A stretch of 32,000 bases of DNA from Candidatus Electronema aureum. GTDB lineage: Bacteria; Desulfobacterota; Desulfobulbia; Desulfobulbales; Desulfobulbaceae. Below the pieces are notes generated by a model. The model saw only the letters and a list, made by a program, of their open reading frames with translations, had not been told where the DNA came from and searched no databases. The stretch is taken from NCBI GenBank assembly GCA_004284765.1, contig NQJD01000005.1, forward strand, positions 1 through 32,000, written 5' to 3'. The translations under genes and the position numbers were made by a program. Position 1 is the stretch's first letter. Each line of letters begins with the position of its first letter. This document shows positions 6,727 to 31,212 of the stretch, piece after piece.

Positions 6727-8133
6727 TTAACCTCTTGGTGCTTCAGGTATATGCCCAGCCAAATATGGTGCAATGTCCTCCGGCTTCAGGCGGCATTCCT
6801 CCAAGGCTAATGATTTGATTCCTTCCAGCGGACCAGGCAGCAGGCAGGATTCCGGCTCTTGAAGGATAATTCTACCGCCTTTGCGCACCACTGCTTCCAT
6901 GCCGATTTTCAAATCAACATCCACACCACTGAGCAGCACCACCGAAAGTTTGGCCCCAAAAACTTCTGCTGCCGAATGGAGTAAGTTATCAGCATCCAAG
7001 GACATCTTGTTAAATTCATCTTCCCTGCCAGAGATGAGAGGCATTCCTTGGCGAAGAACGACCTGCCGTTTGCCGTGACAATTACCCATCCGACATTGGC
7101 CACCGAGTAGGTCTTCGCCGATGTCAAGACAGCTCACGGCATAGGGCGTAAAGGCATTAAAATACGAAGCAAGATGTTGAGCAATACCAGGATACATATT
7201 TTGCAGCACCATCACGGCGGTCGTTTCGTCGTATTCAAGCGCAGGAATAATTTTCTGAAGTTCCAGTAAACCGCCTAATCCACCGAGGATTAACAACAAG
7301 CGGTCTGCTGGTTTTGCCGCCAGAGTGATTTTCTTCTCCGCAGGTTTAGGTGACTTAGCCCGGCTGACGTTATCCACGCAAAATTCGTGTACATTCATCA
7401 GGATATACTGAAGCCGCTCACTGATCAACTTCCACGATTCCGGGTTGACCGGTTTGGCCACGACATCGACCGCGCCATAGCGCATGAAGTCCATCATCTT
7501 GAAAGCCAGCTGCTCATTGAAATTGCTGACTAAAACTACCGGTGCTGGCGAGCGAATCATGATGTGTTTGAGAGCCACGTCACCACTCATCACCGGCATA
7601 GTCATATCCAAGGTGACGAGGTCAGGCACCTGCATTTCCAAGAATTTCAGAGCTTCTTTGCCGTTGGTGGCTGTACCAACCACCTTAGCCTTGATCTGAT
7701 CTTCAAAGAGCTTAACAAAGGCCTTGGTGAAGAAGCGCGAATCATCAACCACCAGCACCTTGGGCAATCCGTCACCTTCTTCTGCCGTAGTCGAAGCAGC
7801 TGGTCGATTTTGCTCATCAATGCGGCGGGCTGCTTCTAAGAGGAGAAAATTCCACGAGGCATCAATACTGCGCTGATTAGTCTTGGCGAAAAGCATACTG
7901 AAGGTGCCGGACGGCCACGTCATGATCCGGTAGAAGGCTTCCTCTCCGGTCAGCTCGCCGAATTCGGCATGAATGATCTCATTGTCGGAAAAATACAGCA
8001 CGCCGAGATTATCCTCGCTGAGGACGCTCAGTTTACGGTCATCACCAGACAAGCAAGCAAACTGGACGATATCGACCAAACCAAGACCTTCAATTTCGCC
8101 GACAAAGCCGTTTCCGATAGAATTTTTTTTCAT
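6727..8133 (-). CDS. PATAN(DUF4388) - receiver - CheB-like (catalytically degenerate) protein
   Basis: N-terminus GLGLVDIVQFACLSGDDRKLSVLSEDNLGVLYFSDNEIIHAEFGELTGEEAFYRIMTWPSGTFSM (DUF4388/PATAN pattern). REC: KVLVVDDSRFF...PDLVTLDMTMPVMSG...AKP. The C-terminal CheB_methylest-like region has ILGGLGGL in place of IGASTGG and LQNMYPG in place of TQHMPPG. Confidence 0.8.
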   Translation of the reverse strand: MKKNSIGNGFVGEIEGLGLVDIVQFACLSGDDRKLSVLSEDNLGVLYFSDNEIIHAEFGELTGEEAFYRIMTWPSGTFSMLFAKTNQRSIDASWNFLLLEAARRIDEQNRPAASTTAEEGDGLPKVLVVDDSRFFTKAFVKLFEDQIKAKVVGTATNGKEALKFLEMQVPDLVTLDMTMPVMSGDVALKHIMIRSPAPVVLVSNFNEQLAFKMMDFMRYGAVDVVAKPVNPESWKLISERLQYILMNVHEFCVDNVSRAKSPKPAEKKITLAAKPADRLLLILGGLGGLLELQKIIPALEYDETTAVMVLQNMYPGIAQHLASYFNAFTPYAVSCLDIGEDLLGGQCRMGNCHGKRQVVLRQGMPLISGREDEFNKMSLDADNLLHSAAEVFGAKLSVVLLSGVDVDLKIGMEAVVRKGGRIILQEPESCLLPGPLEGIKSLALEECRLKPEDIAPYLAGHIPEAPRG

Positions 8134-8151: not shown

Positions 8152-8904
8152 CTACAGGGCGTTGAAGGTAACATGGGTGGCAACAAAGACCAGCATGAGG
8201 ACAAACAGCTCTTTGAAAGAAGTTTCCGGCACTCGCTGAAGGAGTCGTGAACCCAGCTGCGCACCGAGCAAAACGCCGATGATAGCTGGCAAGGCCACCT
8301 GCCACTGCACAGCCCGTCCGAGCAGTAGCTGTGCTGTCACCGCCGTCACGGAAAGAAGCAGCATCAGGGCAATGCAGGTGGCGACCGAGCGAGTCATAGC
8401 TAACCCGCAGCGCATGTTGAAGAAAGGCACTAACCAATCTCCCACGCCAACACCGAGAAAACCGGTGAGCAAGCTAGCAGTGGCGGCAATAGGACGACCC
8501 CGGCGGCGGGCAATCTGCATATCCGGTTGATCTGAACCTTGAACAAAAAAATCATCGCCGCGCATAAAAGCATAGGCGATAAAAAAAATCACCAAGCCGA
8601 GAAAAAGCTTAATATAAATTGGATTGAGCAAAAAGGATATGAACACTCCAATCAACACCCCAGGCAGACTGACTGCGGCCATCATTATGACCAAAGACCA
8701 ATGAATTAGCCCGGCGCGACTGTTGCTGACTGTGGCACTGAATTGGCCAAAAGTTTGGATGACAATCGTGCAAAGCAGGGCCTCATCAGGACGAAGATTA
8801 GTGACAGAGAGCAGCACTGGCATCCACAACACCCCGCCACCCAGCCCGAAAAACAAAGCCACGGTGGCGATTATCATACCCAAGGGCAGCATCAGCCAGT
8901 CCAT
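8152..8904 (-). CDS. TauE/SafE (DUF81) family anion permease
   Basis: About 8 TM helices. The N-terminal FFGLGGGVLWMPVL and internal GFLGVGVGDWLVP glycine-rich motifs are typical of DUF81. The start ATG overlaps the upstream stop (TGATG). Confidence 0.75.
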   Translation of the reverse strand: MDWLMLPLGMIIATVALFFGLGGGVLWMPVLLSVTNLRPDEALLCTIVIQTFGQFSATVSNSRAGLIHWSLVIMMAAVSLPGVLIGVFISFLLNPIYIKLFLGLVIFFIAYAFMRGDDFFVQGSDQPDMQIARRRGRPIAATASLLTGFLGVGVGDWLVPFFNMRCGLAMTRSVATCIALMLLLSVTAVTAQLLLGRAVQWQVALPAIIGVLLGAQLGSRLLQRVPETSFKELFVLMLVFVATHVTFNAL

Positions 8905-9449
8905 CAGTGATAAAAACTCCTGCCAAATTCGGCCAAAGTTTCCTCAAGCTCGTCAATCAGCTGCACAGCCTCCTCAATCTTCGTTGCCTCGTCGCCTTCT
9001 GTCAAGGTTTGGCGAAGCTGCTCGGCCATATTTTTTGAAAGCAGGATCAACTCCTGCTCGTTGGCATTGAGGTCGTTGATGTGTCGAGACAGTTCACCCA
9101 GCTCGTCCTTACTTTCCTCTGACAGGGCAACAGAAAAATCGCCTGCGCTCATGGCTCGCGTCCGCTCGATGATTTGCTCTAGTGGAAACATAATCCGTTT
9201 AATGAAGAGCATCATTACTAAGCCAATAGCTAAGAGCAGGGTACTCAACATCACCCTGACCTTGAGGAGAATGCGACCGACAATATCCAGCGGCAAGGTG
9301 CCACTAAGATTTTCTTTGAGCAGGCCCAGCACCTCTTTACCTCGGAGAAACAACTCGATCTCCACCGCCATCGTTAAAAAAACAATGCCGATAAAAACGA
9401 TGTAAAACCCCATCTGGCGCTGAAGGCCGCTTTTAGGAACGAACTTCAT
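8904..9449 (-). CDS. HAMP-only membrane protein (2 TM + HAMP + acidic coiled coil, no output domain)
   Basis: TM1 GFYIVFIGIVFLTMAV, TM2 LSTLLLAIGLVMMLFI, then the HAMP-like IKRIMFPLEQIIERTRAMSAGDFSVALSEESKDELGELSRHINDLN. Confidence 0.6.
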   Translation of the reverse strand: MKFVPKSGLQRQMGFYIVFIGIVFLTMAVEIELFLRGKEVLGLLKENLSGTLPLDIVGRILLKVRVMLSTLLLAIGLVMMLFIKRIMFPLEQIIERTRAMSAGDFSVALSEESKDELGELSRHINDLNANEQELILLSKNMAEQLRQTLTEGDEATKIEEAVQLIDELEETLAEFGRSFYH

Positions 9450-9461
9450 GAAAGGTGGTGG

Positions 9462-9890
9462 TTAGTCGTTTTTGAAGAGCTTTTCTAAATATTTTTTGAA
9501 GGCCCGTAGATCGTCTTCATAAATATCCTTAAAGCGCACGCCGATGTCGTACATTTCTTCTTCTGGCAGATGTTGCGCCCAAACTACTTCGGCAATTGCC
9601 GTCAGCGGTCTGGAAGCAGTGCCTGCGTCGAGAATGGAGATAATGTTGTTCAAATAATGCTGCCAGCCGCGTAAATCCACAGAAAGCTGAAGAATAGTAC
9701 CTGGTTCGTACAGGTCCTCTGCGGTAAAGCAGAGACCGTTTTCGGCTAAATTCTTGGTGGTTGCAGGCTTTGCGATCAGATTGGTCATCGGATACTGGAG
9801 CTTCGTCACCATCAGAGCCGCGTTTCGCTCAATTCTGGGAGTTTCCCGCCTGCATTTGCCTATGTTTTCCTCCGTCATGCCTTTTCCCAT
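9462..9890 (-). CDS. PilZ-domain protein (partly degenerate c-di-GMP motif)
   Basis: RRETPR (RxxxR) followed about 30 aa later by NLAENG, where the PilZ consensus is (D/N)xSxxG (Ser replaced by Ala). Size and beta-rich pattern fit a stand-alone PilZ. Confidence 0.55.
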   Translation of the reverse strand: MGKGMTEENIGKCRRETPRIERNAALMVTKLQYPMTNLIAKPATTKNLAENGLCFTAEDLYEPGTILQLSVDLRGWQHYLNNIISILDAGTASRPLTAIAEVVWAQHLPEEEMYDIGVRFKDIYEDDLRAFKKYLEKLFKND

Positions 9891-9902
9891 CCCTATTTCT
9901 GT

Positions 9903-10916
9903 TTACTCCAGAATATCCTTTAGTTCCTGAATATCTTCGATGTTCACCGCTGCGGCGAACTGATCATCTACTAACCCATCAATTTTGTTGTCAGCAATCA
10001 GCCTGTGCTTGACCATCAAGTCAGCGATCTGCTTCATTTCCTCTGTCTTGGGAGTGAAGTGATCAAACACCACTTTGCGACTGCTGAGGGCGTATTTTGC
10101 CACATCAGACGACTGCGACCAATATTCAGCGGCGATATCAGCAGCCTGCTCCTGATGCGTTTTTGCCCAAAGACTGGCACGGGCCGCTCCTTGGACAAAT
10201 TTTTGCACCATTTTTGGGTCTTGGGCAATGGTGTTCTGTTTAACGATAACCAAGTTGCAGATGAAGTTTGGCCACACATCTTCTACATGCAGAACCAGAT
10301 CGGCAGAACCACCTTTGAGACTCCGGGCGGCAAACGGTTCACCGACATAATAGGCATCCAAAGAGCCAGCGGCCAAAGCCGAAGCCATATCCGGTGGATT
10401 TAGCTCAACGATATTCACCCGGCCTTGCATTCCTTTTTGTTCCATCAGCTCCAGCAGACTAAGATTATGGCCAGAATAGCGAATGGGTACTGCCACCGTC
10501 TTGCCGCCTAAATCCTCGAAGCTGCGGACGTTAAGACCTTTTTTCGCCACCAAAGTGCTTTCATGTCGGTTGCCGATATACACAACCTTTACGTCCACGC
10601 CCTGCTGCCGCAGCACGACCGACAAAGGCGCGATAATGAAAGCAGCCTGAATTTTGTCGCTGCGGAGTGCCGAGGCCATCTCAGCAAAGGAGCTGAATTT
10701 CAGAGCCTTGAAATAAACATCGCTGCTATCCTTGCTCACATGATCGAGCAGCGGGGCGGACATGTTGGTGATGACCGGCATGTAGCCCATCGTGAAAACT
10801 TTTTTTTCACCGTAATCAAAATTCAGCCAGAGATGCAGAACAGTGATCAGCACCAACCAGCCACCCACGCCAGCTGCCAGCTGCCAACCTTTGGACAACT
10901 TGAGGTCAGACTGCAT
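9903..10916 (-). CDS. ABC transporter substrate-binding protein, NitT/TauT (NMT1/SsuA-like) family, N-terminally membrane-anchored
   Basis: TM anchor WQLAAGVGGWLVLITVLHLW. MGYMPVITNMSAPLL..., YYVGEPFAARS and FICNLVIVKQ are typical of nitrate/sulfonate/bicarbonate-type binding proteins. Confidence 0.75.
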   Translation of the reverse strand: MQSDLKLSKGWQLAAGVGGWLVLITVLHLWLNFDYGEKKVFTMGYMPVITNMSAPLLDHVSKDSSDVYFKALKFSSFAEMASALRSDKIQAAFIIAPLSVVLRQQGVDVKVVYIGNRHESTLVAKKGLNVRSFEDLGGKTVAVPIRYSGHNLSLLELMEQKGMQGRVNIVELNPPDMASALAAGSLDAYYVGEPFAARSLKGGSADLVLHVEDVWPNFICNLVIVKQNTIAQDPKMVQKFVQGAARASLWAKTHQEQAADIAAEYWSQSSDVAKYALSSRKVVFDHFTPKTEEMKQIADLMVKHRLIADNKIDGLVDDQFAAAVNIEDIQELKDILE

Positions 10917-11700
10917 AATTTACCCCTAGCATGAAGAACAATTCGTCCCGGAGCTTGGCCAGTTCAGTATCCTTTTTAAAAAAATTGCGCGGATGAGAAA
11001 AATCGAGTTTGCGGTTGAGCTTGATCTGCGAAGGTCTGCGGCTGAAAACGATGATCCGGTCACCCATGACTAAGGCATCGTCAATGTCATGGGTGACGAT
11101 CAGGATGGTTTTGCCAAGATACTGGTGCATGTTGACCACTTCTTCGCGCAGCTTCATGTGGGTGAGGAAGTCCAAGCCGCTGAACGGCTCATCCATGATC
11201 AGAATGTCAGGATTGACTACCAAAGCGCGAGCTATCTCCGCCCGCCGCAACATCCCGCCAGAAAGCTGATGCGGATAATGTTCCTCAAAACCATCTAATT
11301 CAACCATTTCAATGTATTCCTGTATCTTCTCGCATTTTTCGTCCTGATTTTCTATCTTGCGCAGACCCAGTTCTACATTCTGCCAAACTGTCATCCACGG
11401 CAGAAGACCACTGTGCTGAAAAACAAAAATGTTGTCTGAACTGGGACCAGTGATAGCCTTGCCGTCAATGATTACTGAACCAGAGGTCTGATGATCAAAA
11501 CCGGCGACAATCCGCATCAATGTTGACTTGCCGCAGCCAGAAGGACCGAGGAAGCAGACCATCTCGCCGTCCTCAATTTCAATATTGATGTCCTCCAACA
11601 CGGGAACTGTTTGACCGAAAGGAGCAAGGTCTTCCTCTCGCCTCGTTTTGCGCCGATTGACAAACTCCTTGTTCAAGCCGCTAATTTGAATATGCCCCAT
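10906..11700 (-). CDS. ABC transporter ATP-binding protein, NitT/TauT family
   Basis: True start MGHIQISGL at 11700 with AGGAGAA upstream. The track ORF extension to 11910 overlaps the permease. Walker A GPSGCGKST, LLPWMTVWQNVELGL, LSGGMLRRAEIARAL, ILIMDEPFSGLD. Confidence 0.85.
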   Translation of the reverse strand: MGHIQISGLNKEFVNRRKTRREEDLAPFGQTVPVLEDINIEIEDGEMVCFLGPSGCGKSTLMRIVAGFDHQTSGSVIIDGKAITGPSSDNIFVFQHSGLLPWMTVWQNVELGLRKIENQDEKCEKIQEYIEMVELDGFEEHYPHQLSGGMLRRAEIARALVVNPDILIMDEPFSGLDFLTHMKLREEVVNMHQYLGKTILIVTHDIDDALVMGDRIIVFSRRPSQIKLNRKLDFSHPRNFFKKDTELAKLRDELFFMLGVNYAV

Positions 11701-11708
11701 GTTTTCTC

Positions 11709-12476
11709 CTATGGCTGGCGGATGCCCCAAGCTGCGGACTCGATCCTGCCCAGCCGCCGCATAATAGAATCCAGCAGGATGCCGATCAGGCCAATGACAA
11801 TCATGCCGTCCATGACGTAGTCTAAACGCAGACCGTTGCGGGCATCCAAAATTAAATAGCCCAACCCGGATTGCACAGCGATCATCTCGGCAGCCACAAC
11901 CACAATCCAAGCGATGGTTACAGTTAAGCGGAGGGCGGTGATAATAGCTGGAATGATGGCCGGAATAACAATTTTTTGAATCACTTCCGCCCGGCTGAAA
12001 TCAAAATTAGCCGCAACATAAAAAAAGGTCGGGTTGATAGATTGTACCGCCACCGTTGTCGAGACGACAATAGGGAAGAAGCTGGCCAAGAAAATCAGAA
12101 AGACCGCAGGCTTGTCGCCAATACCGAACCAAAGCATGGCTAAGGGTATCCAAGCCAAAGGCGAGATGGGACGCAAGAACTGGATGATCGGATTGAAGAT
12201 CAGTGCCGCAGTCTGGTTTCTGCCGAGAATGATCCCAATGGGAATACCCAAAACAGCCGCTAAATAAAATCCAGCAGTGACTCGAAATAGACTAGCCACG
12301 GTGTGCTTAAAGATCGCACCGTTCTTGATCAGTTCAATCATGCTGAAGAAGACTTGACTGGGGCCAGGCAGTACGTGGCTGTCCAAACCGGCAAAGCGCA
12401 CGGCGATCTCCCAAATCAATACTAAGACAGTGAAAGATAAAAAGGGCGCAAGTTTATGAGCAAAAGCAGAATTCAT
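11709..12476 (-). CDS. ABC transporter permease, NitT/TauT family
   Basis: Six-TM BPD_transp_1-type protein with the EAA-like loop region (VAAEMIAVQSGLGYLI). Confidence 0.8.
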   Translation of the reverse strand: MNSAFAHKLAPFLSFTVLVLIWEIAVRFAGLDSHVLPGPSQVFFSMIELIKNGAIFKHTVASLFRVTAGFYLAAVLGIPIGIILGRNQTAALIFNPIIQFLRPISPLAWIPLAMLWFGIGDKPAVFLIFLASFFPIVVSTTVAVQSINPTFFYVAANFDFSRAEVIQKIVIPAIIPAIITALRLTVTIAWIVVVAAEMIAVQSGLGYLILDARNGLRLDYVMDGMIVIGLIGILLDSIMRRLGRIESAAWGIRQP

Positions 12477-12497
12477 GGGCGTGTCACCTGTTCGCGA

Positions 12498-13412
12498 TCA
12501 GCCGACGATTTCTTGAGCCAGCTGCATGTATTGGAGGGAGGCACTGCTTTTTTCCGCATAATGACTGATCGGCGCGTTGACAATATGTGATTCCTGCATC
12601 TTGTCGTCCTTTCCGATCACCGTTCTGAACAGGTTATCCCGATAGGTCTGACGCAGTTTATCGCAGATCACCTTTTCCGAGGTGTTTCTTTCATCGTACA
12701 TGGTGATCAGCACCTTGCACTCCACCTCTTGGTTGATGCTTTTTTTCAGCACATTGATGATGTCATGAATCTGACTGACCCCGTGCATGGACAAATATTC
12801 GCAGGTGGAAGGGACAATCACCATATTGGCAGCTACCAGCGCATTGAGGGTGAAAAATTCAATCGAGGGCGGCGTATCGATCAGCACATGATCGTAGCTG
12901 TCTTGGATGGTGCGCAGCTTGTCTCGGAGCAAATACTCAAAATTGTGCTGACTCAAATATTTTTTCTTGAGCAGGGCCATTTTGCTGCTGGAGGGCAGCA
13001 GGGAAAGGTTGGCATATTTAGTTTTCACTACCGCTTCGCCAATATTCTTCACCCCACCGGTCAACACCTCATAAAACGAGCGAGTCTTCCTGAAGCCGAG
13101 CAAAATGGTTAAGTTAGCCTGCACGTCAAAATCAATCAACAAGACCCGCTTGCCCATTTTTGCCAACGCTGCGCCAAGATTCAGAGTGGTGGTCGTTTTA
13201 GCCACCCCTCCTTTTTGATTGCTGATCGCAATGACCCGACTGTAGTCGGGATGCACCTCATCCTGAAGCAAAAAGGAATCCTCAGCATGAGCCGCTCTAT
13301 AGACAATGAAGCGGTGACTGCATTTGTGACAACGAACCTTCAGCTCTGGTTTACCCAGCAGGTCATCAGCAATCTTGTATTTTGTCCTGCATTTTTCACA
13401 TGTGATAATCAT
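12498..13412 (-). CDS. MJ0042-type zinc ribbon fused to a ParA/MinD-family ATPase
   Basis: MIITCEKCRTKYKI...VRCHKCSHRF (CxxC...CxxC) followed by the deviant Walker A ISNQKGGVAKTTTTLNLG and LLIDFDVQANLT, VLIDTPPS. Confidence 0.85.
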   Translation of the reverse strand: MIITCEKCRTKYKIADDLLGKPELKVRCHKCSHRFIVYRAAHAEDSFLLQDEVHPDYSRVIAISNQKGGVAKTTTTLNLGAALAKMGKRVLLIDFDVQANLTILLGFRKTRSFYEVLTGGVKNIGEAVVKTKYANLSLLPSSSKMALLKKKYLSQHNFEYLLRDKLRTIQDSYDHVLIDTPPSIEFFTLNALVAANMVIVPSTCEYLSMHGVSQIHDIINVLKKSINQEVECKVLITMYDERNTSEKVICDKLRQTYRDNLFRTVIGKDDKMQESHIVNAPISHYAEKSSASLQYMQLAQEIVG

Positions 13413-13460: not shown

Positions 13461-14489
13461 TCACCGTTTGATCAAGGAGACGATGGCCTCGGCGAGCCTG
13501 CTTTCCTCCACGATCATATCCACCCGATTTCGCTTAATGGCTGAGTCGGTCAGATTGGGATAAACGCAACTCTCGACGCTCTGGGCTATAGTTTTTCCAC
13601 CTTGTTTTTGAATCATAGCAAAGCCTTCTGAACCGTCGTCACCGTAACCGGTGAGCAGCACGCCCACAGATTTTTCCCGGAACGTCTCAGCGGCTGAAAT
13701 GAACAGAGTGTCCAAGGGCTTATCGGTTGGCTCGCCGATTCTGAAGCAAGGATCACCGTACTCGCTGAAATCGACAGTCACAGACAGCACATTGGACTGA
13801 ATGTAACAAACCCCTTGCTCGATCACCTTGCCGTCCTCCGCAACTGCAATTTTCCAGCTGGCGAATTCGTTGAATTTTTCGACAAAGGCAGGCAGTATCT
13901 TGGGCGAAATCTCCAGCAAAATCACCGCAGCTGCCGACAGGCCAGATTCTAACCGAGTCATCAAGCGGATAAAAGAATTTGGCCCAGTGAGCGAGGTGCC
14001 AATAACCACCAACGACTGCGGCCCGCCGGGATTTTGCGGGTCGGTGCGACCGCTTTTTCTCACTCGCACCCGGCGGATGTTGCCAAAATTAACGGCAGTG
14101 GCCAATTTGATTCGATCAACAATCTGCTGCTTGGCTACATGAATGTCGCTGGAAATTGCGCCAGAGGGCTTGGCGACAAAATCAACCACGCCAAGACGCA
14201 GAGCCTCAAAAGTGATGGAGCCGTCGCTGAAGAGCGAACTCAGAACGACAATCGGTACCGGAGCCTCGATCATGATATGACGGATGGCTTGGAGACCGTC
14301 CATCACCGGCATATCGATGTCGAGCGTGATTACGTCTGGGTGCAGCTCTTTAATTTTTTTCAGCCCTTCTAGGCCGTTGCGAGCCACCCCGATCACTTCA
14401 ATCTCTGGATCAGACTCCAACAGATCGCTGATCGCCTTGGTCATGAAGGTGGCATCGTCAACCACAAGAACCTTATATTTTTTGTCCAT
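13461..14489 (-). CDS. cheB: CheB-like response regulator (REC + methylesterase fold; catalytic His not conserved)
   Basis: REC: KVLVVDDATFM...PDVITLDIDMPVMDG...AKP. Esterase region: VIGTSLTGP (Ser kept), LLEISPKILPAF in place of TQHMPPGF (His to Ile by my alignment), LLTGYGDDG (Asp kept). Confidence 0.8.
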   Translation of the reverse strand: MDKKYKVLVVDDATFMTKAISDLLESDPEIEVIGVARNGLEGLKKIKELHPDVITLDIDMPVMDGLQAIRHIMIEAPVPIVVLSSLFSDGSITFEALRLGVVDFVAKPSGAISSDIHVAKQQIVDRIKLATAVNFGNIRRVRVRKSGRTDPQNPGGPQSLVVIGTSLTGPNSFIRLMTRLESGLSAAAVILLEISPKILPAFVEKFNEFASWKIAVAEDGKVIEQGVCYIQSNVLSVTVDFSEYGDPCFRIGEPTDKPLDTLFISAAETFREKSVGVLLTGYGDDGSEGFAMIQKQGGKTIAQSVESCVYPNLTDSAIKRNRVDMIVEESRLAEAIVSLIKR

Positions 14490-14546: not shown

Positions 14547-17500
14547 TTAATGGATGACAGCCTGCGGCTGCTCCTCCTCCGTTCCTCGCTTCCGTCTGCG
14601 CTTGAAGCTCATATTCCGCTGGGCTTGCTTGTCGGCTTGCTCTTCGCCCGCAATCTTCACCAGCTCTGGGATATCGAGAATCAGCGAAATACCGCCGTCA
14701 CCGAGGATAGTTGCTCCGCCAAATCCACTGCCTGAACGCAGATAATCAGCAAGAGGCTTAATAACAACCTCTTCTTGGCCGAGCAGCTCGTCAACCACCA
14801 GTCCGACTTCTTGGGTACCAGTGCTGACCACGACCACGAACATTTTGTCCTCTTCCTCTTGGGAGCGGTCGATGCTATAAATCCGCCCCAGCTGGAAGAT
14901 AGGCATGGTAGTATCGCGGATGTAAATAACATCTACGCCTTCAATTTGAGAAATTTCATGGCGGAAAATGCGCAAGGTTTCCTCAACTGAGGTCAGTGGA
15001 ATGGTGAATTTTTCTTTGCCCACTCGCACCATTAAGGCTTGGATAATGGCCATCGTCAGCGGAATTTTGATCCGCATCCGAGTACCCTGCCCTATTTTCG
15101 AGCTGATCTCAATCATACCGTTGAGCCGCTCGACATTCTTGCGCACCACATCCATGCCCACGCCTCGGCCCGAAGTTTCGGTGGCCTTCTCGGCAGTGCT
15201 AAAGCCCGGCTCCATGATGATGCGAATAATGTCCTCTTCAGACATTCGGTCTAATTCTTCTTTGTCAAACAGACCCTTTTCTAAGGCTTTCGCTCGGATG
15301 CGCTTAGGATCAATCCCCCTACCGTCGTCAGTGATTTCCACCACGATATGATCACTTTCGTGATACGCTTCCAACATCAGCGTACCCTGTGACGGTTTGT
15401 TTGCTCGTTTCCGATCCGTGATCGTCTCGATGCCGTGATCGACTGCATTGCGGATGATGTGGATCAGCGGATCAGAGATGGACTCGATGACCATCTTGTC
15501 TAACTCGGTTTCCTCACCCTTAGTGATCAGGCGAATATCCTTGTCCGTGCGATGAGTCAGATCGCGCACCAAACGGGGATAGCGTTTAAAGAGCTGGTCA
15601 ATAGGCAACATCCTGATTTTCATCACGCCTTCTTGCAGCTCATTGGAGACACGGCCCAAATGCACACCTGCCTCGCTCAGGCGGAAGGCAAACTCTTGGA
15701 GCGGCTTCAGCTCACTTTTAGTGAGTTTGGCCCTTTCTTGGAGGAGCAGCTGGAGACCGCGCATCTCGTTGACCAACTGGGCGAAATAGGCACGACTAAC
15801 GACCAGCTCTCCCACTTGGTTCATCAGATAATCGATCTTATCTGCATCAACCCGGATGCTGCTGCGTGGAGCAGATTTCTTGACCGCAGATTTTTTCGAC
15901 GTATCGGCATCTTCTTCATCAGAAAATTCCGGTGTTTCCTCGATAACGGCTTTCTCTTCTTCAACTATAGGTAGTGGTGCATCTGCTTTTTTCAACGCCA
16001 CAGGCTCTGGCATTATGGCAGCAAGAGGGGCAGGTTGTTCCTTCTCAGGTGCAGCGGTAGGCTCAGTTGCTTCAGGGACAGAAACAACAGCTAATTCTTC
16101 TGGCTGTTCTTCCTCCGGCTCTGACTCAGTTTTGTCCATGATCTTCTCGATCACATTGTCCATTTGATACTCGGAGGCATCGCTCCTCGGGGACATAGAC
16201 ATATCCAAGGCACTGCTGAGGCGGGCGAATAGCTCGCTGTCGTCCTCCTTTATCTCTGCTGATGGAGGCTCAGGCCTAGGTCTGACTTCATCAGGCGGAA
16301 CAGAACGCGATGGTGGTGGAACCGGTGCTGCTACTTTTTCGCCAGTAGGTTTGCTGAGAAGCGAAATAACTGTGTCCTCGGCATTGTCAAATTCAACCGA
16401 ACTAACAGCTTCGGCAACTACAGGCTTGGGCTGCGGAGCCAGAGCCTGCTTTCCGGCTTCGGCATCAACAACAGCCTGCGGATAAACCTGAATCAACGCC
16501 TCAGTAAAGCGGTGTAACGCTCCGGTCGCATCTACGTTGCTGCCATTAGCAGCCTCTCGGAGAGCTTGCTGCCATTCACGGCAAAATGCAGCCAAGCTGT
16601 GATACTCCATATAATTGGCCGACGAAGAAAGTCCTGCCACTGCCTCTCGGCAACGTTCTAACAGTTCTTTTTTGTCAGAAGCAGCAGGCAATGCGGCCTC
16701 CTGCTCTCGCAGGAAACGGATATCAGTCTGGAGCTTCTTGAGAAAAATGGAGACCAATTCTTGATCGTGTTCATCTTCGGACAGCTCATATTCGAGACTC
16801 AGCGGCTTGCGTTCCGGCGGCGCAGGTGTGGTAGGTGCAGAAGACGTAGTCACCGACCGCACATTTTCCTTCTCATCCTTGTCGTTTTCTTCGTCCTCGT
16901 CATCATCCACCAACCCAGAGATAGTGACAGCAATTGGCCCGTCTTCCTCATCTTCATCTGAAAAGATGGAATCTAAGGCTAAATCAAGATCGTTTGCCTG
17001 CGCAGCATCTTTCTCCTCGTTTTCATGTTGCGGCCCGTCAGACGAGAAAATGTAGTCTAATGCGGCGGAATCGGATTTTGGCTTTTTTGTTGCGGCTTGG
17101 CCCGCATCTTCCTGCGAGTAGCCGTCCATCGCTTGCGGGAAAGAACGGATGATTTCGTCGATGTAATCCTGCATGAAGCCGAGATTCGGCATTTTACCCG
17201 CTGAAAGCTGATCTACAGCATTGCTGATCTCGCGCTGCCAGTCGGTGTAATGCTTGGCCAATTTCTCATAGCCCATGTAATTGGCTGAAGACTTGAGGCT
17301 TTTAATCGAATCGCTGCAACGGTAGAGTACGTCTTGCTTGTCAACTGAGATCGACAGCTCAACGGTCTGGGCGTAAAGGAAGGGAATGTTCTCTTTGAGC
17401 TGCTGAAGGAAGATGCTGTACAGCTCTTCGTCATACTCCTCGGCCATATTTTCTTCAGCCAAAGAGCCTTTGCGCGGCTCTTCGTAAGGCGGTGGCGCAG

Positions 17501-17912
17501 GCGCAATTACTGAACTCTCAGGCACACCACCCTCAACCAAGTTTTTGATTCGCGCGAGCAAATCATCAACCTCTGAATCTTCGACTTGATTACGCTCCAA
17601 CTCTTCTACCAAGAGATTGATGCGGTCTTTGCTCTCAATCAGCAAATCAGTGACTGCTGGAGACAGCGACTGCGTACCCTTGCGGATCAAATCAAGCAAA
17701 TTTTCTAATTTGTGCGACAACCCGGCAACCCGGTCAATGCCGACAAATTGGGCCGCTCCTTTGATGGTGTGAACAGAGCGAAAAAGTTCATCTAAGACTT
17801 CTTTGTTTTCCTTACCGTGGCCTTCCTCCAGTTTGAGCAGGCTGTTCTCCATCTCTTCAAGATGTTCCGCCGCTTCAACGATGAAATCCGGCAGCATTGA
17901 CGTGTCTATCAT
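14547..17912 (-). CDS. cheA: CheA histidine kinase with one canonical Hpt, two His-less Hpt-like repeats, long acidic/Pro-rich linkers, dimerisation, HATPase and CheW-like domains
   Basis: Hpt: LFRSVHTIKGAAQFVG. Dimerisation: IRVDADKIDYLMNQVGELVV. Kinase: DPLIHIIRNAVDHGIE, DDGRGID, GRGVGMDVV. C-terminal CheW-like domain. ATG 17912 (AGGGTGA upstream) is preferred over the GTG at 17921. Confidence 0.9.
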   Translation of the reverse strand: MIDTSMLPDFIVEAAEHLEEMENSLLKLEEGHGKENKEVLDELFRSVHTIKGAAQFVGIDRVAGLSHKLENLLDLIRKGTQSLSPAVTDLLIESKDRINLLVEELERNQVEDSEVDDLLARIKNLVEGGVPESSVIAPAPPPYEEPRKGSLAEENMAEEYDEELYSIFLQQLKENIPFLYAQTVELSISVDKQDVLYRCSDSIKSLKSSANYMGYEKLAKHYTDWQREISNAVDQLSAGKMPNLGFMQDYIDEIIRSFPQAMDGYSQEDAGQAATKKPKSDSAALDYIFSSDGPQHENEEKDAAQANDLDLALDSIFSDEDEEDGPIAVTISGLVDDDEDEENDKDEKENVRSVTTSSAPTTPAPPERKPLSLEYELSEDEHDQELVSIFLKKLQTDIRFLREQEAALPAASDKKELLERCREAVAGLSSSANYMEYHSLAAFCREWQQALREAANGSNVDATGALHRFTEALIQVYPQAVVDAEAGKQALAPQPKPVVAEAVSSVEFDNAEDTVISLLSKPTGEKVAAPVPPPSRSVPPDEVRPRPEPPSAEIKEDDSELFARLSSALDMSMSPRSDASEYQMDNVIEKIMDKTESEPEEEQPEELAVVSVPEATEPTAAPEKEQPAPLAAIMPEPVALKKADAPLPIVEEEKAVIEETPEFSDEEDADTSKKSAVKKSAPRSSIRVDADKIDYLMNQVGELVVSRAYFAQLVNEMRGLQLLLQERAKLTKSELKPLQEFAFRLSEAGVHLGRVSNELQEGVMKIRMLPIDQLFKRYPRLVRDLTHRTDKDIRLITKGEETELDKMVIESISDPLIHIIRNAVDHGIETITDRKRANKPSQGTLMLEAYHESDHIVVEITDDGRGIDPKRIRAKALEKGLFDKEELDRMSEEDIIRIIMEPGFSTAEKATETSGRGVGMDVVRKNVERLNGMIEISSKIGQGTRMRIKIPLTMAIIQALMVRVGKEKFTIPLTSVEETLRIFRHEISQIEGVDVIYIRDTTMPIFQLGRIYSIDRSQEEEDKMFVVVVSTGTQEVGLVVDELLGQEEVVIKPLADYLRSGSGFGGATILGDGGISLILDIPELVKIAGEEQADKQAQRNMSFKRRRKRGTEEEQPQAVIH
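16467..16790 (-). other. Pseudo-Hpt repeat 2 inside CheA (His position occupied by Glu)
   Basis: DEHDQELVSIFLKKLQTDIRFLREQE...LLERCREAVAGLSSSANYMEYHSLAAFCREWQ. It shares the (S)IFLxxLxxxIxFL and SSANYM(G/E)Y motifs with repeat 1. Confidence 0.5.
17136..17450 (-). other. Pseudo-Hpt repeat 1 inside CheA (His position occupied by Asp)
   Basis: EEYDEELYSIFLQQLKENIPFLYAQT...VLYRCSDSIKSLKSSANYMGYEKLAKHYTDWQ aligns to repeat 2 and, more loosely, to the Hpt helix around His51. Confidence 0.5.
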
Positions 17913-18006
17913 ATTGCTCACCCTGTCGCAGTCCGACCATGCAGGTTGTCAAGTTTTTGCAGCTTTTCCGGCCCGGCTCCTCCGCCGGACATGTTTTCCT
18001 TATCCT

Positions 18007-18582
18007 TCAGGCCGTCGGATATTTGCAAGCCGCACCGCCACCGCAGCAGGTTCCATCTTTGCCGCAGTCCGATTCAGCCATCATCCGCTCGTGTTCCAGT
18101 CTGATTTCAAAATAGCTGAATGACGTAACGATGTCTTTCAGATTTTCATTACTTTGTCGCATTTGTTCAATATCTTCGTCAAGTTCTGATTGCGGCTCCG
18201 CGTCGCTCAACGCTGCGATTCGTTCCAACAGTTCGCGGCTCTCTTGGCCGTGATTCCAAACAAAAAGCAACACTTCCTGCATGTTGACGGCCAGATCGTT
18301 GATGCTTTCGCCCAGCCGCCCGATCTCATCAGCCCTGTGGATACGATTAAGGCGGTCCAAATGGCCGTCGATCATCTGCCGAGTGACAGCATGAACATCT
18401 GCCAGTGGCTTCAGTACATAAATTTGAAAAGAAAGGAGGGCCGCTGCTAAAACACAGAGTAAGAGGCCCAGAGCTGCAAGCGCGGCGACTGGCGGTCCGC
18501 CGCGCATAACGAAAACAGCCGTGAACAGAGTCAGCAAAACGGTCAAAGCAAAGAACGATAGAGCCTTGTTCTTCAGACTCAT
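18007..18582 (-). CDS. HAMP-only membrane protein with Cys-rich C-terminal tail
   Basis: Start MSLKNK at 18582 (AGGAAG 8 nt upstream). TM1 LSFFALTVLLTLFTAVFVM, TM2 AALAALGLLLCVLAAALLSF. HAMP-like YVLKPLADVHAVTRQMIDGHLDRLNRIHRADEIGRLGESINDLAVNM. The tail is ESDCGKDGTCCGGGAACKYPTA. Confidence 0.6.
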   Translation of the reverse strand: MSLKNKALSFFALTVLLTLFTAVFVMRGGPPVAALAALGLLLCVLAAALLSFQIYVLKPLADVHAVTRQMIDGHLDRLNRIHRADEIGRLGESINDLAVNMQEVLLFVWNHGQESRELLERIAALSDAEPQSELDEDIEQMRQSNENLKDIVTSFSYFEIRLEHERMMAESDCGKDGTCCGGGAACKYPTA

Positions 18583-18692
18583 GCCGTTAGCTTCCTGGGG
18601 CGAGGTTGACATAGGCGACAAATCCGTGTTAGTGAAAATGTTCTTTGTGGCAATGCCCGCATTGCCGGATTGCTCCCTGCTCAGACAGAGAG

Positions 18693-19076
18693 TCAGATAC
18701 CAGAGTCTTGGCCTCCGCCGTCCTCTTCCTCCTCGATCATATCCAGAATTTCTTTGGCCTTGTGCTTGCTGGCAAAGCCACGTGCGCCCAGCTTCTCCAC
18801 CTCTGCTCGATAGACTTCCTCGTCAAGATTGGAGAGGAAAATGATATGAGCTGATTTATCAAAGCGGAGAATTTCCTTGGCCGCAGCTAAACCGTCCATA
18901 TCCCGCATGGTGATGTCCATGGTCACGATGTCGGGCTTCAGGGCCTTATACAGCTCAATCGCCTCAATGCCATTTTTGGCTTGCCCCACCACGATGTGTC
19001 CCGGCGGCTGGAGCAGCTTGACAATCATCTTGCGCATCATGGAGGAGTCATCGACAACCAGAACCCGTTTGCTCAT
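18693..19076 (-). CDS. cheY: CheY-like single-domain response regulator
   Basis: KRVLVVDDSSMMRKMI...PDIVTMDITMRDMDG...IIFLS. GGGAGA lies upstream, and the gene starts 5 nt after the cheW stop. Confidence 0.85.
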   Translation of the reverse strand: MSKRVLVVDDSSMMRKMIVKLLQPPGHIVVGQAKNGIEAIELYKALKPDIVTMDITMRDMDGLAAAKEILRFDKSAHIIFLSNLDEEVYRAEVEKLGARGFASKHKAKEILDMIEEEEDGGGQDSGI

Positions 19077-19081
19077 CTGCG

Positions 19082-19597
19082 TTATTCTCCCTTGATTGAA
19101 CCCAGCTGTTGCAGCTCATCCGCCATCAGAATGCGGTTGAAATCCAACAGAATGAGGAGGCTACCGCCGATGTCGCAGACCCCCTTAATGTAGCGGTTCG
19201 CCAGCCCGGCCATGATCACATCAGGCGGCGGCTCGATGGTGCTTTCCATAATTTTGAGTACCTTAGTCACTGAATCGACAATGAAGCCGGTAACGCGGCC
19301 TCCAATGTCAAGAATCAGTATCCAAGCATCTTTGGTGTCGCTTTCTTTCCGATATAAATTCAGCCGCTTGCGCAGCTCAATAACCGGAATGATGTTGCCG
19401 CGCAGGTTAATAACACCCTCAATAAAATCCGGTGAATTAGGCACCGACGTAATCGGCGCGGAACGGATGATCTCCTGCACCATGAGTATGTCCACGCCGA
19501 ACTGCTCCTTGCCGATGGTGAAACCGACCAGCTGCATGAGCTGCTCTTTTTCTTCCCGGTCGGCAAACCTCTTTTCGGCTGCAAATCCCTCTGGCAT
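19082..19597 (-). CDS. cheW: CheW coupling protein
   Basis: LVGFTIGKEQFGVDILMVQEIIR...VPNSPDFIEGVINLRGNIIPVIELRKRL is the canonical CheW fold signature. GAGGAG lies 8 nt upstream. Confidence 0.9.
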   Translation of the reverse strand: MPEGFAAEKRFADREEKEQLMQLVGFTIGKEQFGVDILMVQEIIRSAPITSVPNSPDFIEGVINLRGNIIPVIELRKRLNLYRKESDTKDAWILILDIGGRVTGFIVDSVTKVLKIMESTIEPPPDVIMAGLANRYIKGVCDIGGSLLILLDFNRILMADELQQLGSIKGE

Positions 19598-19648
19598 GAA
19601 TGGTCTCCTCGTTGCGCGGTGTCCCGCGTTTTCTTCGTTGAAAGCGAA

Positions 19649-19681
19649 CTGCTCCGCGCCGGAAAGATAGACGCGGAGCAG
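19649..19681 (-). promoter_or_regulatory. Intercistronic GC-rich stem-loop between the MCP stop and the cheW start
   Basis: On the minus strand, CTGCTCCGCG, a 13-nt loop and CGCGGAGCAG (10-bp perfect stem) are followed by UUCGCUUUC. This could be a partial terminator or stability element. Confidence 0.3.
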
Positions 19682-19704
19682 CAGACAAGAGGCGGTCCAG
19701 CAAA

Positions 19705-22700
19705 TTAGAGTTTGAACTGCTCAACCTGCTCCCGCAACTTTGCAGAAGCGGAGGTCAACTCACCGGTGATCGCCACAACGGTACCTGCGCCTTCTACGGT
19801 CTTCTTCGCACCTTCAAAGGACTGCTGGGCGATTTTGATCGCGTTCGCAGAACGCTGACCTTGGGCAGTAACCAGCTCGTTCAGTACTTCGGTACGACGC
19901 ACAATCTCGCGCATCTCACCGTCGATGGTGGTCGAACCAACCGTGGCTTCGGCAACCAGCGCACTGATGATTTGAGACTGTTGAACCATCGCAGCGAGAG
20001 CGTCCTCAGCAGCTTTACGACGAGTACCCTGCTCACCGGCCATTGTAGCAATCTGCTGGGCCAGTTTGTTCAGCTCTTGAACGAAGTTCTGAACACCTTG
20101 GATGTCTTTCTCAACAACGTGGGCAACCGACGCGATTTCCTCAATCGACTTCATGTTGTTACGACCGCTGGCATCGATCAAGGCGAGCGCGCTTTGCAGC
20201 TGCTCGGAGTATCTCGCACCCTCGTCCACTTTGGCGGTCGAATCTTTGATCAGCTGGGTAATTTCCTTCGCAGCTTCAGAGGAACGTTGCGCCAGCTTAC
20301 CAACCTCGTCGGCAACAACCGCGAAGCCCTTACCGTGCGCACCGGCACGGGCGGCCTCGATCGCAGCGTTCAGAGCCAGCAAGTTGGTCTGCTCCGCGAT
20401 CTCGGTAATAACGCTGATGATTTCAGAAATCTGGCCAGAAGACTCAGCAATAGCGTGCATACCAGCAACCGTGTTTTCAACAGCGGTACGACCGGCGTTC
20501 GCAGCTTTCAGTGATTCTTGACCCTGCTGGGTGGCGTTGTTAATTGCTTGACCCATGTTACGCACAGCGGCGGTGATCTCGTTCATCGAGGCCGTCACCT
20601 GCATAACCATTTTACCTTGCTCACCGGACGTGGACACAACCATTGCGCCGGTCTGTCCCATGTCGCCTACGCGGTTAGTAACGGTTTCAGCTTCTTTTGA
20701 TTGCTTGATAACCGCGCTACTTACCGTGTTCATGGATTGAAGCAGCTCGGTAATCGTGCGCTGCGATTTCTGCGCTGATTCCTGCTGGGCTTTCGCGCCC
20801 TCAGCAACCTGACCAGCGGTCTGACCAATCGTTTCCAACAGCTCTCGGGTTTTTTCAGACTGCTTCACCTCGATCTCAGCACGGTCACGGTTACCAGCGG
20901 CGCGGTTAGCCACGTCCTTGGCGTTGGTCGCAACCGTCTGCGAAACCTGCTCAACCTGTTTAAACGACCTGTTCAACTCAAGCAACATAGAGTTAAACTC
21001 CGCAGCCATCTGTCCTACCTCGTCGCCCGAAGCAACCGGCACGTTCAGGGTCAGGTCTCGTTCAGACGCAACCTGTCGTACAACCTCGGCGATGGAAACG
21101 ATGGGTTTAGAGAATGCACCTCCGATGAACCAAGCCATGACGGCGATGGCAGCGAGCAGGAGGATACCGGTGAAGATAGCGCGGTTTCTTGTGTCAGTTA
21201 CGGCTTGAAGAGCCTCTTTGGTGTCGATCTTGGAGACCAGAACCCAGTCAAAGCCAACCCCCAACTCTTTGTCCAGCCGCAGCTTGGTAGCCGCGCCGAT
21301 GATCGGGTCGCCGACGTAATCCACAGAGTGCGTGAAGATGCCTTCCTCGCCCGCCTCAATTGCTTTTTCCACCAAGACGGTTTCCAGCTTTTTCTCGCCC
21401 AACAGCTGCAAGCCTTTCCGGGAGTCGGAACGGGGCCGCAGATCTTCGGTACTAACCATGAAGGTCTCACCGGTCTGACCCAGACCCGTCTGCTCATCCA
21501 TGTAGGCCTGAAGAACGGTGTTGGTGACGCGGATGGCGATCATGGCGATAACTTGATCCTTCTCGATGATCGGCGCGGCGATGAAGGCTAGCGGTCTGTT
21601 GGCCGGAGCGTAGTGCGCGTAGTCGGCCAGCATGACCTTTTTGCTGTCGCGGACATTCTGGAGCAGCTTGCTCAGGTTGGTGTCCTTGAATTGACTGTCG
21701 GAGAAAAGGTTGGCGTGATACTCCTTCTCCTTCTTGACGGTGTAGTAGCAGTAGCCGGAGGGGTCAGTCAGATAGATGTCGAAGTAGTCATACGCCTTGC
21801 TGAACTTTTGCAGCAAGTCCTCGGTTTGACCCGCGCCTTGCGGTACCAGAATCTCGGTCAGGGCACCGGTGGTGATCAGACCCCAGTTCACGCCGGGAAC
21901 GTTCAGCGGCAAATAGGTGGTGATTTCGTACAAACCCGTCGGGCCGACTTGGAAGAAGGAGCCTTTCTGACCGGAGAGCACCAGCTCGGAGTTCTTACCG
22001 GGCTTGGGATCGCCGATCTTACCTTGCTTGACAGTACGGTCAGAAGCCAGCTTGGGGTTATCCTTGGTGCCTGTGACCATGTAGGACTCGAAGGAGGCTT
22101 CCAGACCCTCGCGCTCTTGAACGATGTCGTTGATGTCTTTTGGAGAAAGCTGAATAACGACGATGCCGAGAACCTTGCCTTCCGACTTGATGGGCGTACC
22201 CAAGAAGAGTGCTTGCGCGTTGTTGGAAGGCGCATAGAGGGAGTAGTCCTCCATCGAGGTTTCCTTCAAAGCCTTGGGGAAGAGACGGCCTACACCGGAG
22301 TCTTTCAGGCTGCCCTTAACCACGTTCTGGCCTACGTCCGACTCTTCTTCGGCAGAGGCATAGACAATATCGCCCGCTGGCGAGATCAGCATTACGTCAT
22401 AATAGCTGTGCGCTGCCGTGAACTCTTTGAACATCGGGCCGTATTTGTCCCGGTAGCCGTTCCACATGCTGCCGCCGATCTTGCCGCCCTCCTCTTGGAA
22501 CGCCTGGTTGAACTCCTGCATGGCGGTGGCGGTGGCGTAGCCAGCGGCCATAACCTGCGCGTCCGCGAACCGGCGCTTCATGAAGCGCTCGATGGCCTGT
22601 TTCTTGCCGGCCTCGAAACCTTGCATCTTGCCGAGAGCCTCATTGTGCAGACCCTCCATGATGTCGCCGAGAATCTGCATGTCGCCGTAACGCTCATGGA

Positions 22701-22905
22701 AGTAGCGCACGATCTCTTTCTTTTTCAGCTCGCGGACAGACTCAAGCTGCTGCTGGGCACGGGCTGTCAGAGCTTTGGATGTTGACCAGTAGTCCAGCAC
22801 CGCGTTGATCAGGTAGGGCACCGTTCCTACCATGAGCAGCAGGGCCATCAGCTTCCACCGGAGGCCCCAGCCCTGTTTGTAGGTTTTTACCTCTTGTCGT
22901 TTCAT
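19705..22905 (-). CDS. Methyl-accepting chemotaxis protein with a very large periplasmic tandem Cache-like sensor, HAMP and a long signalling domain
   Basis: TM1 about aa 18-38, TM2 about aa 576-598, HAMP about aa 600-650. Signalling hairpin [38 protein letters not shown]. Strong RBS AGGAGGGAG upstream of ATG 22905. Confidence 0.9.
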
Positions 22906-23232: not shown

Positions 23233-23258
23233 GGGCGGACACAGGGGTCCGCCCCTAC
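23233..23258 (-). repeat. REP-like hairpin copy b (inverted relative to a; overlaps the RAYT stop codon)
   Basis: The rc reads GTAGGGGCGGACCCCTGTGTCCGCCC. Stem GGGCGGAC/GTCCGCCC, with compensatory changes relative to copy a. The TAG stop of the transposase lies in the GTAGGGG head. Confidence 0.7.
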
Positions 23259-23480
23259 ATGAACGGCGTTGGGGCATTTAATTGATCTTCCGTCCACCGG
23301 GCCGGGTTGTTTTCAATGTATTCACGAATTCCGTTCAATTCGTGTTCGTCACGAATGACGCGCTCCCAATAATTGCGCTGCCATAATTTGCCGGGAAAGG
23401 GCCGCCATCCGCAACCCTTCACCCCGTCCGCATATCGTTTTGTGGTCAGGGTTTTGTAGCGGCGCATTACATCCGGCAAG

Positions 23481-23506
23481 GTAGGGGCAGGCCCTTGTGC
23501 CTGCCC
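23481..23506 (+). repeat. REP-like hairpin copy c (inside the RAYT coding sequence)
   Basis: GTAGGGGCAGGCCCTTGTGCCTGCCC. It is read on the minus strand in frame as GQAQGPAPT. Confidence 0.7.
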
Positions 23507-23672
23507 TATCATTCCTTGTATCTGCCCAGAAAGAACCACAATGCCATGCAGATGATTCGGCATAACGGTAAATGCGTCAAGCGCAACACCGGAATAATAT
23601 TCTGGCATTTCATGCCATATTTCCCGAATCATCTGCCCCGCTGTATTCAGCCGCATTTCAGAAGGAACATCA

Positions 23673-31167: not shown

Positions 31168-31212
31168 GCTGGTCAACCCGATTCAGAAAAAAGGAAAAAG
31201 TCCCGGCGATGC

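Follow-up and report, generated by a model that had tools for sequence, protein, structure and literature searches.

The protein-glutamate methylesterase/deamidase CheB (EC 3.1.1.61 and 3.5.1.44) has a textbook place in bacterial chemotaxis, and a CheB fold is usually taken to mean methylesterase activity. In CheB, as represented by the Salmonella (1A2O and 1CHD) and T. maritima (3SFT) structures, the CheB alpha/beta fold lies C-terminal to a receiver (REC) domain. The PatA-type regulators of cyanobacteria (PixG, PixE, PilG, and Anabaena PatA) instead place an N-terminal PATAN domain before a phosphorylatable REC, and the Tax systems of these organisms are chemotaxis-like clusters with a plain CheY and no working CheR/CheB pair. 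In a third group, the Frz/MglA-MglB system of Myxococcus xanthus and the Chp system of Pseudomonas aeruginosa (PilG/PilH), the polarity of the pilus motor is controlled by several receivers that take their input from a Che-like kinase. Here we describe a gene from Candidatus Electronema aureum whose product combines a PATAN domain, a REC domain and a CheB fold that lacks the catalytic Ser and His; we write CheB* for such a fold and PRC for the PATAN-REC-CheB* gene. The gene lies on contig NQJD01000005.1, of which positions 1 to 32,000 were analyzed (this whole 32,000-nucleotide stretch is referred to as the window). Judged by its sequence, the CheB* domain is a pseudoenzyme under strong purifying selection.

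The PRC gene is a 468-codon open reading frame (ORF) on the minus strand, the plus-strand reading being riddled with stops; the initial annotation of this DNA, which had been made from the letters alone, was silent on the strand. The PATAN, REC and CheB-fold architecture that it proposed was borne out, since all three Pfam domains exceed their curated cut-offs, and the motifs that it quoted (TLDMTMP, LGGLGGL and LQNMYPGI) were all found in the translation (Table 1). It had also called the receiver phosphorylatable. In a MAFFT alignment, residues D130-D131, D176, S203 and K227 line up with D10/D11, D56, S/T82 and K107 of CheB, and the predicted receiver thus carries the full set of phospho-acceptor residues. 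A CheB-fold domain of 190 residues extends the protein beyond REC, so that by Pfam it is not a two-domain PATAN-REC protein. The linker between REC and CheB* (residues 254 to 263; 7345-7372, minus strand) contains the family-invariant residues N255, R258 and A259, and R240 is invariant as well. The equivalent linker in CheB is poorly conserved.

To locate the catalytic triad we relied on two independent alignments to Salmonella CheB (1A2O), made with phmmer and MAFFT, which agreed that Ser164 corresponds to Gly285, His190 to Asn312 and Asp286 to Asp407. The initial annotation was therefore right that Ser and His are missing, and it made no mention of the retained Asp. Its reading of the nucleophile motif was one residue out of register: GASTGG corresponds to LGGLGG, and the Ser is replaced by Gly rather than by Leu. 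The CheB signature HRPSVD and most of the pocket residues are also gone, and the protein scores below both NCBIfam CheB cut-offs (NF001965, 150.8 versus 293; NF009206, 143.2 versus 342). In the family alignment the CheB* domain has no conserved alternative His or Cys (His reaches at most 52% and Cys at most 68%), and its only conserved Ser, S402 (95%), matches Thr281 of canonical CheB, which marks it as an inherited residue and not a migrated nucleophile. For these reasons we ruled out migrated catalytic residues as a family-wide feature. The PRC protein thus appears to lack the chemistry that defines CheB and, by that criterion, is predicted not to be a methylesterase.

This loss is not peculiar to one genome. 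The best 120 matches among 5.8 billion proteins, whose named sources are Ca. Electronema, Ca. Electrothrix, Desulfobulbus and Thermodesulfatator, nearly all share the three-domain architecture, down to 36% identity, and carry public labels such as "chemotaxis protein CheB," "response regulator" and "DUF4388 domain-containing protein." Counting residues in 113 full-length sequences from this set, we found Gly at the Ser164 position in every one, and N, D, Q or E at the His190 position, with His in a single sequence. Asp286 is matched by Asp in 74 of the 113 close homologues and in 18 of 43 nonredundant orthologues, and the phospho-acceptor Asp (D176) is kept throughout both sets (113/113 and 43/43). 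We widened the sample by searching 1.84 billion cluster representatives (clusters at 50% identity) with a profile. Among the best 150 clusters, which we classified, were 68 with the PATAN-REC-CheB and 34 with a REC-PATAN-REC-CheB architecture, and none of these 102 PATAN-fused clusters has Ser and His together at the triad positions. Five REC-REC-CheB proteins among the same 150 carry the canonical IGASTGGP, QHMP and TGMGxDG motifs, a positive control that validates the alignment. The proposal in the initial annotation that the chemistry had been lost can therefore be extended, at the level of sequence, to the whole family (113 homologues and 102 PATAN-fused clusters).

Despite the loss of its catalytic residues, the domain is tightly constrained. 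The ratio of nonsynonymous to synonymous substitution rates (dN/dS) of CheB* against Ca. Electronema orthologues is 0.03 to 0.07, with synonymous sites saturated in the more distant pairs, and the PATAN and REC domains give similar values. Conservation within CheB* is highest in the loop that once held the nucleophile and in the helix just after it (G284, G285, G287, E291, Q293 and K294), and E291, Q293 and K294 are family specific, with no counterpart in canonical CheB. In the PATAN domain, 28 positions are conserved at 90% or more.

The initial annotation had suggested superposing a predicted structure on CheB, and the result shows the CheB fold to be kept. An AlphaFold2 model of the PRC protein, built on an 85-sequence family alignment, had a mean predicted local distance difference test (pLDDT) score of 90.3 and a predicted template modeling (pTM) score of 0.76. 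Foldseek searches of the PDB with this model returned CheB and REC structures only: full-length CheB 1A2O (E value of 6e-25; template modeling [TM] score of 0.82, target normalized; 356 aligned columns), the isolated CheB catalytic domain 3SFT (TM score of 0.87; root mean square deviation of 2.8 A), P. atrosepticum CheB 6YMZ and the catalytic domain 1CHD. The REC and C-terminal domains fit onto 1A2O together, and the model thereby predicts that REC packs in the closed, CheB-type manner on what was once the active-site face. Because the best solved matches of the REC-CheB* unit in a phmmer search of the PDB are likewise CheB receivers and CheB catalytic domains, the unit clearly derives from a CheB. 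Modeled separately, the PATAN domain also forms a compact fold (pLDDT of 91), for which the PDB held no solved relative with an E value below 0.1 and no match with a TM score above 0.34.

Taken together, the fold retained in the model, the family-wide loss of catalytic residues and the purifying selection are the operational marks of a pseudoenzyme, and we assign the CheB* domain to this predicted class. The alternative, a decaying and functionless remnant of CheB or a pseudogene, would account for the lost catalytic residues and for little else; we regard it as barely credible and ruled out by the dN/dS values of 0.03 to 0.07, by sequences that stay conserved from end to end in 37 species-level genomes and in over 100 clusters (50% identity), and by the confident predicted fold. 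In keeping their fold while losing catalytic residues family-wide, in evolving under purifying selection and in having paralogues in the pathway, the PRC proteins resemble signaling pseudokinases and pseudophosphatases. Typical regulatory pseudoenzymes differ in that one dead copy partners an active one, whereas here all the paralogues in the cluster are defective, as described below.

Table 1. Features of the PRC gene and of the chemosensory gene array in the window
Feature	Residues	Positions	Strand	Basis or remark
PRC gene (PATAN-REC-CheB*)	468 aa	6727..8133	minus	ORF list, translation, Pfam, 120 same-architecture homologues
PATAN (DUF4388/PatA_N, PF14332)	12-108	7810..8100	minus	Pfam E 1e-15; compact, no alpha-clip insertion
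REC (Response_reg, PF00072)	126-232	7438..7758	minus	Pfam E 2e-18
Predicted phospho-acceptor codon, within TLDMTMP	D176	7606..7608	minus	Alignment to CheB D56
CheB* (CheB_methylest, PF01339)	282-456	6766..7290	minus	Pfam E 3e-19; 70 bits versus cut-off of 24
LGGLGGL in place of nucleophile elbow GASTGG	283-289	7267..7287	minus	Gly285 codon 7279-7281 at Ser164 position
LQNMYPGI in place of TQHMPPGF	310-317	7183..7206	minus	Asn312 codon 7198-7200 at His190 position
Asp at Asp286 position	Asp407	6913..6915	minus	Kept in PRC protein, variable among homologues
TauE-family permease		8152-8904	minus	Directly upstream of PRC
HAMP-only membrane protein		8904-9449	minus	Upstream of TauE; pair adjoins PRC-type genes
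PilZ, NMT1-type binding protein, ABC ATPase, ABC permease, ParA-like ATPase		9462..13412	minus	Conserved array members
REC-CheB paralogue b		13461..14489	minus	GTSLTG Ser and Asp kept; His190 position is Glu
CheA-type kinase (Hpt x2, dimerization, HATPase, CheW-like)		14547..17921	minus	Pfam
HAMP protein, CheY, CheW, dCache-HAMP MCP (head of array)		18007..22905	minus	MCP at 19705-22905
Paralogue a_ext (pseudo-REC, weak PATAN, REC, CheB*)	589 aa	23841..25610	minus	Ser replaced by Ala, His by Tyr

PRC is the last of 14 codirectional, tightly spaced minus-strand genes that run from 22905 down to 6727. Their order is methyl-accepting chemotaxis protein (MCP), CheW, CheY, HAMP protein, CheA, REC-CheB, ParA-like ATPase, ATP-binding cassette (ABC) permease, ABC ATPase, NMT1-type binding protein, PilZ, HAMP-only protein, TauE and PRC. 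When the initial annotation placed PRC last in its operon, it was correct as to the terminal position in this array, which we read from gene order only: a consensus scan for promoters and terminators between 6000 and 24000 gave counts no better than shuffled sequence, and so was uninformative on operon structure, and it showed no clear internal terminator on the minus strand. The PRC stop codon (6727-6729) abuts the end of the convergent plus-strand lpxB gene at 6726, with zero spacer and no room for a terminator. Within the array, the CheA-type kinase is the likely phosphodonor of the PRC protein. Pfam did not detect a P2 domain in this kinase. The MCP showed no match to the methylation consensus, which is weak evidence because the regular expression used had no positive control, and no C-terminal pentapeptide was found on it.

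Two further genes of the window encode CheB domains, and none of the three has a full Ser/His/Asp triad. Paralogue b looks canonical and yet falls under the NCBIfam CheB cut-off (255 versus 293). Paralogue a_ext carries Asn at the phospho-Asp site of its pseudo-receiver, followed by a PATAN match (residues 135 to 213; E value of 4e-6) and a later, normal REC, which makes it the second PATAN-REC-CheB* protein in the window; its architecture occurs in at least 34 clusters (50% identity) and also in Desulfonema limicola. Domain searches of the 32-kb window found no CheR, CheD or CheC gene. A BLAST probe for CheR, itself confirmed as CheR by Pfam (PF01739; E value of 6e-60), likewise found none among the ORFs of the window or of 46 related loci with flanks of 10 kb on either side. 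Across nonredundant loci, the PRC paralogue has Gly at the Ser position in 43 of 43 cases and His in 0 of 43; paralogue a has Ser in 1 of 20 and His in 1 of 20; and paralogue b has Ser in 31 of 35 and His in 0 of 35. The receiver Asp is retained in all three. A trio of defective CheB proteins with no CheR nearby, recurring across loci, points to a property of the system rather than of one gene.

Several other features of the window were apparent. An IS200-like Y1 transposase ORF (23255-23884, minus strand) separates a_ext, whose end it overlaps, from the MCP gene. An earlier arrangement of genes may have been split by this ORF, and in one related locus (L007) the equivalent of a_ext directly follows PRC. 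The ParA/MinD-like ATPase (12498-13412, minus strand), which may position the array, has an N-terminal MJ0042-type zinc ribbon and shares an array with CheA in the type II and type III loci described below. Transport-type genes, from ABC permease to TauE, are embedded in the che array both in the window (8152-12476, minus strand) and in locus L047 (7363-13206). The HAMP-TauE pair stands directly beside PRC-type genes in two classes, Desulfobulbia (cable bacteria) and Desulfobacteria (Desulfonema), which hints at a functional link. Two tandem paralogues (28892-29980 and 30043-31176, minus strand) join a cyclic-nucleotide-binding domain to a C-terminal PATAN domain, and the window contains four PATAN proteins. 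On the plus strand, a 571-aa STAND-type NTPase (AAA_22/nSTAND1; 2085-3800) precedes genes for an ABC ATPase, an oxidoreductase and LpxB, and appears unrelated to the che array.

To survey the distribution of the PATAN-REC-CheB architecture, as the initial annotation had recommended, we scanned one genome per GTDB species with the family motif G[GS][LM][LI]E[LI]QKI. The scan confirmed 37 loci, in Ca. Electronema, Ca. Electrothrix, Desulfobulbaceae, Desulfobulbus and Thermodesulfatator-like genomes, and all were in Thermodesulfobacteriota or in metagenome-assembled genomes labeled Deltaproteobacteria, the only groups in which the family was seen. The nearest relative in the scan, Ca. Electronema nielsenii, reached 98% in the domain. 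Two further carriers came from cluster look-ups: Dissulfurimicrobium hydrothermale and the filamentous Desulfonema limicola, which belongs to the Desulfobacterales.

The related loci, annotated by BLAST against reference proteins and cross-checked against precomputed Pfam tables, fell into three types. In type I (~22 loci), genes for a PilB-like ATPase (TPR-MshEN-T2SSE), a protein of ~550 aa, an MglA-like GTPase and an MglB-like Roadblock protein lie on one side, and HDOD/HD, CheB-a, CheB-b, PRC, CheY and CheA genes on the divergent side, with frequent overlaps of start and stop codons. In all type I loci the ~550-aa protein, which has no Pfam match, is encoded between the PilB-like ATPase and the GTPase that resembles MglA (for example, L004 3981-5684, minus strand). 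Type II (~17 loci), found in cable bacteria and their near relatives, has the gene order of the window, from CheA to TauE-PRC; in a Desulfonema variant, a REC-PATAN-REC-CheB* gene has the ABC/binding-protein genes on one side and the HAMP-TauE pair on the other. In type III (three loci), an MCP-CheA-ParA/zinc-ribbon set runs divergently from PRC. All loci with enough flank have a CheA gene no more than ~10 kb from PRC, adjacent to it in types I and III and several genes away in type II.

These data allow the PRC protein to be set against the systems introduced above. It resembles CheB in the order and modeled packing of its REC and CheB-fold domains, in its intact receiver residues and in being encoded with CheA, CheW, CheY and an MCP; it departs from CheB in the two substituted catalytic residues, the missing HRPSVD, the additional N-terminal PATAN domain, the subthreshold NCBIfam scores and the absence of a nearby CheR in the window and locus flanks. 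With the PatA-type regulators it shares an N-terminal PATAN domain followed by a phosphorylatable REC, a chemotaxis-like cluster with a plain CheY and no working CheR/CheB pair, and a host that is a filamentous gliding bacterium. Unlike them, it adds a C-terminal CheB-fold domain, its REC is CheB-like, its PATAN domain lacks the alpha-clip insertion and its host belongs to another phylum; PilB binding can be proposed for it by analogy only. As in the Frz/MglA-MglB and Chp systems, a Che-like kinase is accompanied by several receivers, and ~22 related loci place the PRC operon divergent from genes for MglB, MglA and a PilB-like ATPase. Those systems, however, keep active CheB/CheR homologues (FrzG/FrzF and ChpB/PilK), and their output regulators have neither a CheB-fold nor a PATAN domain, and MglA and MglB are absent from the window. 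On its predicted features, then, the PRC protein falls outside CheB as defined by the triad and the curated cut-offs, and outside the two-domain definition of the PatA type. The literature searched, the coverage of which was incomplete, described neither a PATAN-CheB fusion nor a noncatalytic CheB.

What might such a protein do? On balance, we lean toward the view that it serves pilus-type motility and polarity, as an output or adaptor regulator phosphorylated by CheA. The CheA of the cluster would phosphorylate D176, and phosphorylation would loosen the packing of REC on the former active-site face of CheB*, as it does in CheB. The ensuing conformational switch would govern binding, with PATAN as the effector and the dead CheB domain as a noncatalytic regulatory or docking module. 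By analogy with the cyanobacterial PatA-type regulators, the target of PATAN may be either a pilus ATPase of the PilB type or the polarity module formed by MglA/MglB, through which the direction or reversal of gliding would be set. PRC would act alongside the two further CheB paralogues, phosphorylatable and triad defective like itself, in a system with no CheR in its neighborhood. All parts of this scheme, from phosphotransfer and switch to the target of PATAN and the role in motility, are inferred. In the cyanobacterial regulators, PATAN is the output domain: alone, it can bind PilC and the PilB1 N-terminal domain and suffices to reverse phototaxis, and PATAN genes often neighbor MglA/MglB genes (bioRxiv 10.1101/2021.06.11.447907). 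PixG binds PilB1 only when phosphorylated (PMC11181946). The MglA, MglB and PilB-like ATPase genes beside PRC in other lineages likewise point to PATAN as an output domain. Cable bacteria glide and show oxygen taxis (PMC12163305).

Several observations weigh against this view. PilB, MglA and MglB genes are all absent from the 32-kb window, so that the proposed pilus link would rest on homology to other lineages, and the immediate neighbors of PRC in cable bacteria encode TauE, a HAMP protein and PilZ. The linker between PATAN and REC (residues 110 to 124) has a pLDDT of ~50, which leaves the model silent on how PATAN would be controlled. The searches that found neither CheR nor a canonical CheB covered flanks of ~10 kb around the loci. 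Finally, the mechanism of motility in cable bacteria is itself uncertain (PMC12163305).

Two other explanations are compatible with an output role for PRC. In one, which we consider doubtful, the dead CheB domain still recognizes the chemoreceptor or the CheA array; phosphorylated PRC and its two dead paralogues would bind stoichiometrically and damp or reset the kinase, replacing methylation-based adaptation, and PATAN would serve only for localization. Such feedback would fit the presence of three phosphorylatable CheB-fold paralogues with CheR in no locus, the peak of conservation at the former active-site loop and, subject to the missing control for the regular expression, an MCP devoid of methylation-consensus sites. 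Docking without catalysis is plausible in itself, since in E. coli it is chiefly the P2 domain of phospho-CheA that brings CheB to ON-state arrays (PMC11414734). However, Pfam finds no P2 domain in the CheA of the window, and the loss of HRPSVD and of most pocket residues makes recognition of receptor glutamates doubtful. The other explanation, that the GGxGG loop and the invariant E291, Q293 and K294 form a site for a small ligand such as a nucleotide second messenger and that CheB* is a sensor, strikes us as unlikely. The invariant G285, G287, E291, Q293 and K294 are family specific and missing from canonical CheB, and genes linked to second messengers recur nearby (PilZ, MshEN, HD/HDOD and cyclic-nucleotide-binding-PATAN); the motif, however, is neither a classical GxGxxG nor a P-loop, Foldseek against the PDB yielded no ligand-binding homologue, and the proposal is purely inferential.

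We attach less credence to the two remaining explanations. That PRC is a phosphate sink, merely competing with CheY for the phosphoryl groups of CheA while PATAN and CheB* have no specific target, is quite improbable. It would suit the intact receiver and the presence of several receivers per CheA in every cluster, and there is a precedent in Synechocystis, where the CheY-like PixH antagonizes PixG phosphorylation (PMC11181946). A sink would need REC alone, yet PATAN (with its 28 highly conserved positions) and CheB* (dN/dS of ~0.05) are constrained over more than 100 clusters, which disfavors it. Residual hydrolysis with noncanonical residues, for example S402 together with D405/D407 or with E291/K294, is very unlikely indeed. 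S402 is highly conserved and sits at a strand end beside the former nucleophile loop, and Asp407 is kept in the PRC protein; against this, the counterpart of S402 in canonical CheB is a conserved Thr, D407 is variable, the scores lie under both NCBIfam cut-offs, and the domain has no conserved His or Cys to act as a base. We return to PRC as an output regulator with a noncatalytic CheB* module. A broader version of this proposal is possible, if tentative: a lineage-specific class of chemosensory system in Thermodesulfobacteriota may have given up receptor methylation, its conserved set of three phosphorylatable, noncatalytic CheB-fold proteins acting as stoichiometric feedback and output components and its PATAN member physically coupling the receptor/CheA array to the pilus-motor/MglAB polarity machinery. 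If so, a methylation-free circuit would set gliding reversals along oxygen and sulfide gradients in cable bacteria.

What is new here is a response regulator with a predicted CheB-derived pseudoenzyme domain, found in a type of chemosensory cluster with three defective CheB paralogues. The absence of the Ser/His pair from the entire family and from all three paralogues, the strong selection and the lack of a nearby CheR together argue for a noncatalytic use of the CheB fold in signaling. One consequence is that annotation-based inventories miscount "adaptation enzymes" in the genomes that carry these genes. Another is that the PATAN fusion, together with the MglA/MglB/PilB-like neighborhood, offers a testable route from a chemosensory kinase to the surface-motility machinery in sulfur-cycling Thermodesulfobacteriota, one that would cover the cable bacteria, whose motility and oxygen taxis have been observed.

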